A DNA stretch of 64,000 bases from an uncultured Actinomycetota bacterium (GTDB lineage Bacteria; Actinomycetota; Actinomycetes; Propionibacteriales; Nocardioidaceae): the NCBI GenBank assembly GCA_963708875.1, contig CAVPUL010000002.1, forward strand, positions 406,598 through 470,597, read 5' to 3'. The notes below the pieces were generated by a model. That model was not told the DNA's origin, did no database searches, and saw only the letters and a program-made list of their open reading frames with translations. A program made the translations under genes and the position numbers. This document shows, piece after piece, positions 56,101 to 64,000 of this stretch (position 1 is the stretch's first letter; every line of letters starts with the position of its first letter).

Positions 56101-56343
56101 GACGTAGCCGGTGAGCAGGTGGCCGTAGTGCGGCAGGCCGTTGGCGAAGGGCGGGCCGTCGTAGAAGACGAACTCGTTGCTGCCGTCGTCACCGGCGTCG
56201 CGCTGCTCGACGCTCGCGCGGAACGTGTCGTCGGCCTCCCAGTAGGCCAGCACGGCCTCCTCGATGGCGGGGAACCGCGGGCTCGAGGGCACGCCGGTGG
56301 CTCCCTCGGAGAGGGAGGTGTGGGAGACCTGGGGGTACGTCAT
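53113..56343 (-). CDS. ileS: Isoleucine--tRNA ligase (type 2)
   Basis: [13 protein letters not shown] (HIGH), [13 protein letters not shown] and [11 protein letters not shown] motifs. Confidence 0.97.
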
Positions 56344-56363
56344 GGCGGGTGCTCGATTCTCGA

Positions 56364-56545
56364 CTCGTGGTGTGACTCCACGAGGACGATCGGCTGACCG
56401 CGGTACCACCTCGCTTGCTCCCGCCGGGGCGGGAACCGCTTCATTGGGCTGTGCCGGGCCCTACCCGTCGGGTTCTAGTGGGGTGCCGGCCGGATCGCCG
56501 TACCTGTTCTTCCCGTGGCTCGCCGCTGATGACGGCTCAGACGCC
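56364..56545 (-). ncRNA. Translational T-box riboswitch (Ile) in the ileS leader
   Basis: Short stem I GCCGT-CATCA-GCGGC with AUC specifier (56528-56530), stem II S-turn (AGAAC/TAGAA), and CGAGG-TGGTACC-GCG...CGT-CCTCG antisequestrator. Confidence 0.92.
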
Positions 56546-56599
56546 TGGCTCGATCGTACGGCTCGGGATCGGTTGCGGGCCAATCCGTTTGCGGCAGTG

Positions 56600-62777: not shown

Positions 62778-63720
62778 TCCGCAGCTTCTCGGTGAGCACG
62801 AGCAGCCGCTTCCACAGCAGCCTCTGGACCAGCACCACCACGACCCCGGCGCCGACCATGCCGGCCAGGTTGATCGCCAGCTGCTCAGCCGATCCGACCA
62901 GCTCGTCGACGTCCCCCAGGGCCAACGCCAGCGCCAGGTTGCCGGCCGCCGGGACCGTGGTGACGGAGATGAACACCCCGACGAGCGCGTTGCCGCGGTC
63001 GGTGGTCATCGCCAGCACTCCGGCCGCGCCGGCCACGATCGCGACGATGAAGGACCAGGCGTCGGGCCGGTAGATGAAGCTGGTCTGTGGCCGGGGCTCG
63101 GAGAGCATGCTCGCATCGACGAGCGGGGTCGCCGCCGCAAGCAGGGACAGCCCTGCCACGACGACGATCGCCACCGCGAAACCACCGAGCAGGAGCGCGG
63201 TGGCGCGCCACACCACCTCCCACTTGCGCAGCACCAGCCCCACCGAGATCGCAGCCACGGTGCCGAACTCGGGCCCGACGACCATCGCGCCGACGACGAG
63301 GATCGGCGAGTCGGTGATCACGGCGATGGCGGCGAGGACGACCGCGAGCACCATGAAGGTGAAGTAGCTGACCGTGCCGTGGGTCGCTCTCTCCGCGCGC
63401 TCGACGACCTCCGGCCAGATGACGGCGTCCTCCGGATCGCCCGGTGCCGCCCGGCCGATCGCCTCGGCAGCGTCGAAGGGAGCGCTGTCGGGCGCCCACA
63501 CGAGGATGGCGCCGGACGAGGACAGTCCGGTGTCGTGGAGCGAGTCCAGCACCTCGGACGTGAACTCGCGGGCCACGTCGAAATCGATGACGTCGGCCTC
63601 GATGCCGACGCCCGCGTCGCGGATCCGGGTGACATTGGTGATGCAGTCGTGGTCCGTCACCAGCGCGAGCACCTCGTCCACCAGGTCAGGCGGGACGGTG
63701 AGGCGGAGGTGGACGACCAT
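62767..63720 (-). CDS. DUF389 family membrane protein
   Basis: ILVVGAMVVGPEF, GVFISVTTVPAA and LAINLAG motifs. Confidence 0.9.
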   Translation of the reverse strand: MVVHLRLTVPPDLVDEVLALVTDHDCITNVTRIRDAGVGIEADVIDFDVAREFTSEVLDSLHDTGLSSSGAILVWAPDSAPFDAAEAIGRAAPGDPEDAVIWPEVVERAERATHGTVSYFTFMVLAVVLAAIAVITDSPILVVGAMVVGPEFGTVAAISVGLVLRKWEVVWRATALLLGGFAVAIVVVAGLSLLAAATPLVDASMLSEPRPQTSFIYRPDAWSFIVAIVAGAAGVLAMTTDRGNALVGVFISVTTVPAAGNLALALALGDVDELVGSAEQLAINLAGMVGAGVVVVLVQRLLWKRLLVLTEKLRISA

Positions 63721-63759
63721 GGCCGGAGCCTAGGGCGTGTCCCTGTGGCGAAACCCGGT

Positions 63760-63957
63760 TGTGGTGCCAGTCGGTGCTCGCGCACCATGGTCCCCGACGG
63801 GCGCGAGGCCTGACACCCCTCCTGCACACCAGCAGAGCGGCGGCCGTCCGCGCGTCCGGCGTACCGACGAGAGGTCGGTGCAACGCCGACAAAGGTGTGG
63901 TGGCACCGCGACCTTGCCCCCGCCCACACCTCCAGGGCCCCTATCTGGAGGTGTTTC
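63760..63957 (+). ncRNA. Candidate non-Ile translational T-box riboswitch
   Basis: AGGTGTGG-[TGGCACC]-GCG-N10-CGC-CCACACCT antisequestrator, and a competing ACACCTCCAG/CTGGAGGTGT hairpin that buries the SD GGAGG. Confidence 0.8.
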
Positions 63958-64000
63958 ATGAGAACGCTCTGCTCTGACCTGACCACCACGACACCCGGCG
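63958..64000 (+). CDS. 5' end of a gene (MRTLCSDLTTTTPG...), truncated by the window edge; possibly an aminoacyl-tRNA synthetase
   Basis: SD GGAGG (63947-63951) six nt before ATG 63958. Only 14 codons are visible, so product identity is inference. Confidence 0.55.
   Translation, partial: MRTLCSDLTTTTPG

Follow-up and report, generated by a model that had tools for sequence, protein, structure and literature searches.

A compact leader RNA ahead of an actinobacterial AspRS2 gene with the features of a translational T-box for tRNA-Asp

T-boxes are the textbook case of a structured RNA that reads another RNA. Near the 3′ end of the stretch of DNA analysed here, which comprises 64,000 nucleotides (nt) from an uncultured member of the Nocardioidaceae (contig CAVPUL010000002.1, positions 406,598 to 470,597; hereafter the window), a leader of ~163 nt (~63795-63957) precedes the start of an aminoacyl-tRNA synthetase gene, raising the question of whether this leader is a T-box and, if so, which tRNA it would read. 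Its anatomy and that of its relatives argue, with a probability that we put at roughly 0.85, for a translational T-box that monitors the charging of tRNA-Asp ahead of the gene for AspRS2, a second aspartyl-tRNA synthetase. The features on which the argument draws are listed below in window coordinates.

63759-63788, plus strand: putative promoter, with the -35-like TTGTGG at 63759-64, an 18-nt spacer and the -10-like CACCAT at 63783-88
63796-63848, plus strand: Stem I three-way junction, in which a lower helix encloses a specifier hairpin and a variable hairpin
63805-63821, plus strand: specifier hairpin, GAGG 63805-08 pairing with CCUC 63818-21 around the 9-nt loop CCUGACACC at 63809-17
63849-63869, plus strand: compact Stem IIA/B-like H-type pseudoknot, a nearly invariant 21-nt element
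63870-63893, plus strand: lower part of the discriminator, consisting of the linker AGAG 63870-73, Stem III and AAA 63891-93
63893-63931, plus strand: antisequestrator, or T-box proper, as read from the sequence, with helix A1, the bulge UGGCACC, helix A2 and a 10-nt loop
63916-19 with 63935-38, plus strand: possible OFF-state pairing of the A2 loop (GCCC) with the sequestrator loop (GGGC), from complementarity in relatives
63926-63954, plus strand: sequestrator hairpin of 10 perfect base pairs, formed by an anti-Shine-Dalgarno strand and the Shine-Dalgarno (SD) strand
63958-64000, plus strand, running past the window: start of the AspRS2 gene, from its open reading frame (ORF) and its NF003483 and Pfam matches

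The identity of the regulated gene was established by extending the locus beyond position 64000, as the initial annotation of this DNA had proposed. The ATG at 63958 opens an ORF of 422 amino acids (L002:556-1824) that ends at window-equivalent position 65226. Its product matches NCBIfam NF003483 (aspartate--tRNA(Asn) ligase) with 509 bits against a cut-off of 353, and Pfam assigns to it the class IIb catalytic domain tRNA-synt_2 and an OB anticodon-binding domain; judged by these matches, it is an archaeal-type non-discriminating AspRS (AspRS2). The same genome also encodes a bacterial-type AspRS (821 bits) and GatB, and no AsnRS above the cut-off was found in it. AspRS2 is thus a second AspRS, in an organism that makes Asn-tRNA by transamidation. 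The tRNA-Asp of this genome has the anticodon GUC and the discriminator G73, its tRNA-Asn has GUU and likewise G73, and its tRNA-Ile carries A73.

The T-box core lies immediately upstream of this gene. Helix A1 pairs AGGTGTGG (RNA AGGUGUGG) at 63893-63900 with CCACACCT (RNA CCACACCU) at 63924-63931 in eight of eight positions, and beyond the 7-nt bulge TGGCACC (UGGCACC, 63901-63907) helix A2 joins GCG 63908-10 to CGC 63921-23. The sequestrator, in which ACACCTCCAG (ACACCUCCAG) at 63926-35 pairs with CTGGAGGTGT (CUGGAGGUGU) at 63945-54, shares positions 63926-31 with A1, which makes the two folds mutually exclusive, and it engages the SD sequence GGAGG (63947-51), 6 nt ahead of the ATG, with CCUCC. 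Helix A1, the bulge, A2 and the 10-base-pair hairpin burying the SD are found at exactly the coordinates given in the initial annotation. Its further proposals that the switch would act on translation and that it is not specific for isoleucine also stand: an SD sequestrator is present, a terminator scan found no terminator-like site in the leader, and UGGC is complementary to the 3′ end of tRNA-Asp with its G73 (GCCA), whereas tRNA-Ile has A73. Computed folding energies of -17.0 kcal/mol for the sequestrator and -13.1 kcal/mol for the antisequestrator make the former more stable by 3.9 kcal/mol, which is the gap expected for a switch that is tipped by pairing with the 3′ end of a tRNA. The 64-kb window contains two copies of a 12-mer of the core, GGTGGNACCGCG, where 0.25 would be expected, and both are oriented correctly ahead of aminoacyl-tRNA synthetase genes.

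The conservation of these elements was assessed at 80 orthologous loci, drawn from Nocardioides, Promicromonospora, Kribbella, Kineosporia, Nakamurella, Micromonospora, Nonomuraea, Dactylosporangium, Amycolatopsis and Chloroflexota. The T-box motif, with compensatory changes in A1, lies upstream of ~68 of the 80 AspRS2 orthologues, in Actinomycetota and Chloroflexota alike. Two classes of leader can be distinguished among them, full-length and short. Full-length leaders, with GAA-GAC-A at the Rfam specifier position, occur in Kribbella, most Nocardioidaceae, Micromonospora, Nonomuraea and Chloroflexota; the leader of the window belongs to the short class. A covariance model, R1, was built from a 14-sequence alignment with RNAalifold, and its sole match in the genome from which the window derives is the leader at 63795-63957 (170 bits). 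R1 matches 76 of the 201 genomes of the family, and all 30 of the family matches that were fetched lie directly ahead of an AspRS2 homologue. When R1 was combined with a protein search, the 201 genomes divided into 73 with both RNA and gene, three with the RNA only, ten with the gene only (several of these at contig ends) and 115 with neither.

A pattern scan of metagenomes added a further 80 loci, yielding an alignment (A3) of 96 leaders, 89 of them distinct; the covariation counts given below refer to these 89 short-class leaders unless another number is stated. Imposed on A3, the proposed fold pairs 97.7% of cells, with compensatory changes in 20 of its 37 pairs; none of 500 shuffles reached these values, and control folds slid along the alignment pair 32-56% of cells. 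The comparison of orthologous leaders, put forward earlier as a check on the proposed structure, therefore supports a fold that is conserved with compensatory changes. Within the core, A1 exhibits compensatory UA to AU changes among relatives, as well as UA to UG, and seven core pairs of the sequestrator are invariant in the 14-sequence alignment. The UGGCACC bulge is invariant, with C at its fourth position in 88 of the 89 distinct leaders. The bulge variant UGGCACA (GGUGGCACAGCG) is seen in L088, L094, L098-L101, L105, L107, L113, L028, L031 and L004.

Upstream of the core, the leader folds into a short Stem I. Its lower helix joins 63796-99 to 63845-48 and 63801-04 to 63840-43, and all eight of these pairs exhibit compensatory changes; pair 7:57, for example, occurs as GC in 40 sequences, AU in 31, UA in four and UG in three. 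All four pairs of the specifier hairpin stem covary as well. The apical loop of this hairpin holds the aspartate specifier GAC at 63812-14, complementary to the GUC anticodon of the tRNA-Asp encoded in the same genome, with U63811 before it and the purine A63815 after it. Across the short-class leaders UGAC is near-invariant (U in 84/84, G in 83/84, A in 84/84, C in 85/85), and the base that follows GAC is always a purine. The variable hairpin, CUGC 63822-25 with GCAG 63832-35, is missing in about a quarter of the relatives. No AG bulge, distal-loop sequences, kink-turn (K-turn) or elbow platform could be recognized in Stem I of the window or of the short class. The initial annotation had noted that no Stem II S-turn is visible, and none was found in the leader, where the position is occupied by nothing but the short, sequence-variable hairpin 63822-35 inside Stem I. 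As an alternative specifier, the GCG at 63838-40 that follows 'GAA/AGA' was considered as an alanine codon in the canonical position and rejected; it is paired in the lower helix, and tRNA-Ala fits neither UGGC nor the gene.

Among 84 distinct regions upstream of homologous leaders, 72 have a TANNNT hexamer at a constant spacing, -28 to -26 relative to the U of UGAC; in the window, CACCAT (63783-88) occupies this position. A scan with the E. coli consensus found no promoter. Because the -10 position is conserved, transcription should begin near 63795, and we infer a start there. The stem I-like fold proposed in the initial annotation (63763-63817) would consequently lie largely upstream of the RNA: its strands, 63763-70 with 63810-17 and 63777-83 with 63801-07, are indeed complementary (7/8 and 7/7 pairs), but they consist mostly of promoter DNA, overlapping the conserved -35 and -10 positions, and the GAC that it presents in its loop (63796-98) is not conserved. 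The assignment of an aspartate GAC specifier was thus right in kind and misplaced in position, the conserved triplet being the one in the hairpin 63805-63821. In the same way, the description of the architecture as minimal is apt with regard to the absent S-turn, but it overlooks the lower Stem I helix, the three-way junction and the IIA/B-like pseudoknot.

We interpret the nearly invariant segment 63849-69 as the counterpart of Stem IIA/B, in the form of a compact H-type pseudoknot. Its first stem (S1) would pair CGC 63849-51 with GCG 63859-61; the second (S2) would pair CGU 63853-55 together with CG 63857-58 with CGACG 63865-69, leaving N63856 bulged and UAC 63862-64 as loop L3. S1 covaries: pair 61:69 occurs as CG in 70 sequences, UA in 15 and UG in two, and every A69 is matched by U61 (Fisher 5e-15, phylogeny not corrected). 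The pairs of S2 are invariant and hence give no covariation signal, and the bulge is the sole freely variable base in 63849-69. A canonical, covarying IIA/B is found at the same place in leaders of an intermediate class (L019, L029, L042, L071, L102), and its topology matches. Two other foldings were rejected. In the first, a pseudoknot joining CGUC 63845-48 to GGCG 63858-61, pair 57:69 covaried in 14 sequences and fails in 89 when position 57 is A or G, whereas pairs 7:57 and 61:69 hold. The second is a plain hairpin, 63853-69, closed by G63859-C63864; 15 sequences have A63859 with the C unchanged, and since these changes are compensated at 63851, the pseudoknot is preferred over the hairpin.

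The linker GAGAGG and the A-rich run 3′ of Stem III are nearly invariant and match the purines found on either side of Stem III in canonical T-boxes. Between them, Stem III pairs 63874-79 with 63885-90 around the loop GCAAC, and five of its six pairs covary. The hairpin at 63858-63888 that had initially been likened to Stem III is not the conserved helix, and the covarying stem takes its place.

The loops of A2 and of the sequestrator may contact each other in the OFF state. Of 102 distinct leaders, 99 could form at least four Watson-Crick pairs between the two loops, in variants that include CCCUU/AAGGG, CCCAA/UUGGG, UUGCCC/GGGCAA, CCCG/CGGG, CCCC/GGGG and CGCC/GGCG. The controls are weak, with 4.24 against 4.03 in the class-swap comparison and a shuffle control that is weak too, and the complementarity is thus suggestive of a pseudoknot that could form together with the sequestrator.

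Because established knowledge of T-boxes can be applied to this leader, a mechanism may be proposed; anatomy, conservation, covariation, linkage to the gene and the tRNA matches are seen in the sequences, whereas tRNA binding, the switching step and the physiological role are what we infer. The GUC anticodon of tRNA-Asp would pair with GAC in the apical loop of the very short Stem I hairpin, which would stack on the covarying lower helix, with the compact IIA/B-like pseudoknot next to it. An uncharged tRNA would pair through its 3′ GCCA with UGGC (63901-04) and stabilize the antisequestrator, freeing the SD so that AspRS2 is translated. With a charged tRNA, or with none, the sequestrator, as the more stable fold, would form and hide the SD. 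Such a switch would raise the capacity for aspartylation when the charging of tRNA-Asp drops.

Several observations weigh against this interpretation. The Rfam T-box model RF00230 yields no match on 63600-64000 at E ≤ 10, nor any in the window at its gathering score. The element is missing both the distal platform of Stem I and the Stem II S-turn, either of which might be expected to hold a tRNA in place, and its -10 sequence is a weak, degenerate version of the family's TANNNT. Alignment A3 was fitted to the model structure for most helices, the pseudoknot excepted, and some of its sequences were gathered with a search pattern in which linker and bulge are set in advance. Finally, tRNA-Asn(GUU) also carries G73 and could pair with GAC by way of G-U pairing at the first specifier position.

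This last point underlies the alternative that survives best, in which tRNA-Asn is sensed, either alone or along with tRNA-Asp; the enzyme charges both and would feed the GatCAB route to Asn-tRNA. The presence of GatB in a genome without an AsnRS above the cut-off would suit such a role, and a T-box on a non-discriminating AspRS/GatCAB operon of Clostridium is cited as Asn-responsive (Saad 2012, as represented in the article citing it). The specifier is GAC, however, and never AAC, in the 84 short-class leaders and in the full-length orthologous leaders, and T-boxes tend to need Watson-Crick pairing with the anticodon (TBDB preprint). We consider a response to tRNA-Asn unlikely.

A second alternative is that the leader is the decaying remnant of a T-box, in which the discriminator and sequestrator survive next to a truncated decoding module that no longer binds tRNA, and expression is constitutively low or set by temperature, a protein or RNA stability. 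The joint loss of elbow platform, K-turn and S-turn, together with the blindness of Rfam to the element, could be viewed in this light, as could the accessory nature of the gene, which 2 genomes out of 14 in the window's genus carry, and the existence of a relative (L004, described below) whose T-box has lost its 3′ half to a tandem repeat of 44 nt × 3, so that loss is evidently possible. Against decay stands the strict conservation of UGAC, of the purine after it and of UGGC, and the compensatory changes in Stem I, Stem III and the pseudoknot across 89 distinct sequences are what selection on a working RNA would leave. The remnant is accordingly given an even smaller chance than tRNA-Asn. The weakest alternative holds that the main target of the switch is transcription or the fate of the mRNA, for example by way of Rho-dependent termination or attack by RNases on an untranslated message, rather than ribosome binding as such; blocked translation of a GC-rich leader often exposes the RNA to Rho, and orthologous leaders of Chloroflexota (L055, L079) end in intrinsic terminators, but no intrinsic terminator was found in the leader of the window and the alternative hairpin, which is conserved, pairs exactly with the SD, so that Rho or RNase effects would be secondary and this account is very improbable.

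The distribution of the translational tRNA-Asp T-box proposed here is uneven. Within the window's genus, the RNA or the gene was detected in only 2 of 14 genomes. In Promicromonospora (L014-L016) the short-class leader is almost identical to the Nocardioides one and AspRS2 is 75-76% identical; most genera of Nocardioidaceae have a leader with a long Stem I, and their AspRS2 has 63-66% identity. The near-identical cassette in Promicromonospora and Nocardioides, taken with the count of 2 in 14, suggests joint horizontal transfer of leader and gene. Three genomes (G072, G078, G103) have weak R1 matches (E 2e-4 to 4e-7) and no AspRS2 match at E ≤ 1e-80. Some leaders are reduced further than that of the window: in L031 (Intrasporangium), L021 and L035, a K-turn-like or bare UGAC hairpin is followed by ~15-25 nt and then Stem III, with no recognisable IIA/B. 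In the closest relative, L004, whose AspRS2 is 96% identical, the T-box is broken (1320-1500). After GGUGGCACAGCGAUCUAGCCCCC, a perfect tandem repeat of 44 nt × 3.1 (1349-1486) replaces the 3′ strands of A2 and A1 and the anti-SD, and the SD and ATG remain; L004 is presumably a natural loss of the switch, which would leave expression unregulated.

What would such an element add to the understanding of T-boxes? In current structural models the elbow platform of Stem I holds the tRNA, a role that Stem II fills in the ileS leaders of actinobacteria, and at least one of the two is thought indispensable. The leader of the window may be a natural T-box that recognizes its tRNA without the elbow platform and without the Stem II S-turn, their roles being taken by the three-way-junction Stem I and the pseudoknot 63849-69, with the OFF state locked by the pairing of 63916-19 with 63935-38; it would then be the first translational member not specific for isoleucine. 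We advance this composite proposal tentatively, at slightly less than even odds. If the leader works, the tRNA-sensing core can be smaller than has been assumed, and the full-length, intermediate and short leaders in front of one gene would form a natural reduction series toward a minimal core of this kind. Translational T-box control would then reach beyond ileS, and the compact scaffold of ~135 nt could serve in engineered tRNA-responsive switches. The leader also suggests that, in actinomycetes, the accessory archaeal-type AspRS serves as a back-up whose expression can be induced.

Existing annotation overlooks the family. RF00230 finds no match in ten short-class loci at E ≤ 1. It does match the full-length orthologous leaders end to end, with 34-73 bits (L022, L034, L045, L048 and L055 among them), all below its gathering score of 93 bits (Rfam 15), so that annotation at the gathering threshold misses the whole Asp T-box family. 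The class II model of TBDB, 'translational_ILE', was derived exclusively from leaders of ileS genes. Many soil Actinomycetota thus carry members of a family that Rfam misses and that the Ile-only class II model presumably misses as well. In the literature surveyed, translational T-boxes are linked to actinobacterial ileS only, in agreement with what the initial annotation had stated, and no description of an actinobacterial Asp T-box was found in the literature searched, although a mention in Vitreschak 2008, in Sherwood 2015 or in TBDB records is possible.

Compared with T-boxes in general, the leader has the A1/bulge/A2 arrangement, a bulge that matches the discriminator base, a specifier that matches both gene and tRNA, an alternative helix, and a Stem III with its purines. 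It differs in having neither a match to the curated covariance model nor a long Stem I with K-turn, specifier internal loop and distal platform.

Its closest structural counterparts are the class II T-boxes of actinobacterial ileS genes, for which an ultrashort Stem I has been described and structures from M. tuberculosis and N. farcinica are available (Sherwood, Grundy & Henkin, 2015; 6UFG, 6UFM; as described in reviews and later papers). As in those leaders, an SD sequestrator competes with an antisequestrator, the specifier occupies the terminal loop of a truncated Stem I without an elbow platform, and a IIA/B-type pseudoknot, a Stem III with flanking purines and a UGGN bulge are present. 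The Asp leader departs from them in pairing GAC with UGGC where the ileS leaders have AUC and UGGU, and in controlling an accessory second AspRS rather than ileS. In it, a long-range lower helix closes the specifier hairpin and creates a three-way junction, and the hairpin loop measures 9 nt instead of 7. It has no Stem II S-turn, a motif represented by GAAGAAC/CUAGAAC in the ileS leader of the same genome; one review regards Stem II as essential where Stem I is truncated. It also goes undetected by Rfam.

An ileS T-box lies within the window itself, at ~56340-56560 on the minus strand, before an ORF of 1098 amino acids that is probably ileS, with TACGAT as its -10 sequence. Its ultrashort Stem I reads GCCG-UCAUCAG-CGGC, with AUC in a 7-nt apical loop, and is accompanied by a Stem II S-turn and a IIA/B pseudoknot. 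The 12-mer GGUGGUACCGCG stands at 56399-56410 (minus strand), and the bulge UGGU matches A73 of tRNA-Ile, which makes this leader an internal check on the discriminator rule. RF00230 reaches 29.6 bits on it, over the 3′ part only, and it too would go unannotated.

The full-length Asp T-boxes of Kribbella, other Nocardioidaceae, Micromonospora, Nonomuraea and Chloroflexota precede the same gene, carry GAC and have a near-identical discriminator sequence (AAGGUGUGGUGGCACCGCG), and those of Actinomycetota share the SD sequestrator. Unlike the leader of the window, they keep a long Stem I with K-turn, specifier internal loop and distal platform; some keep Stem II and a canonical IIA/B, and those of Chloroflexota end in intrinsic terminators. 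T-boxes of the glyQS type (B. subtilis, G. kaustophilus) resemble the Asp leader in naturally lacking Stem II, but they also lack IIA/B, have a long Stem I with an elbow platform, act on transcription and are specific for glycine. With the Asn-responsive T-box on the non-discriminating AspRS/GatCAB operon of Clostridium acetobutylicum (Saad et al., 2012, cited in PMC4206432), finally, the leader appears to share the control of a non-discriminating AspRS; that system, as far as the citing article conveys it, belongs to a Firmicute and is reported to be linked to the tRNA-dependent formation of asparagine, whereas the leader described here would respond to tRNA-Asp.

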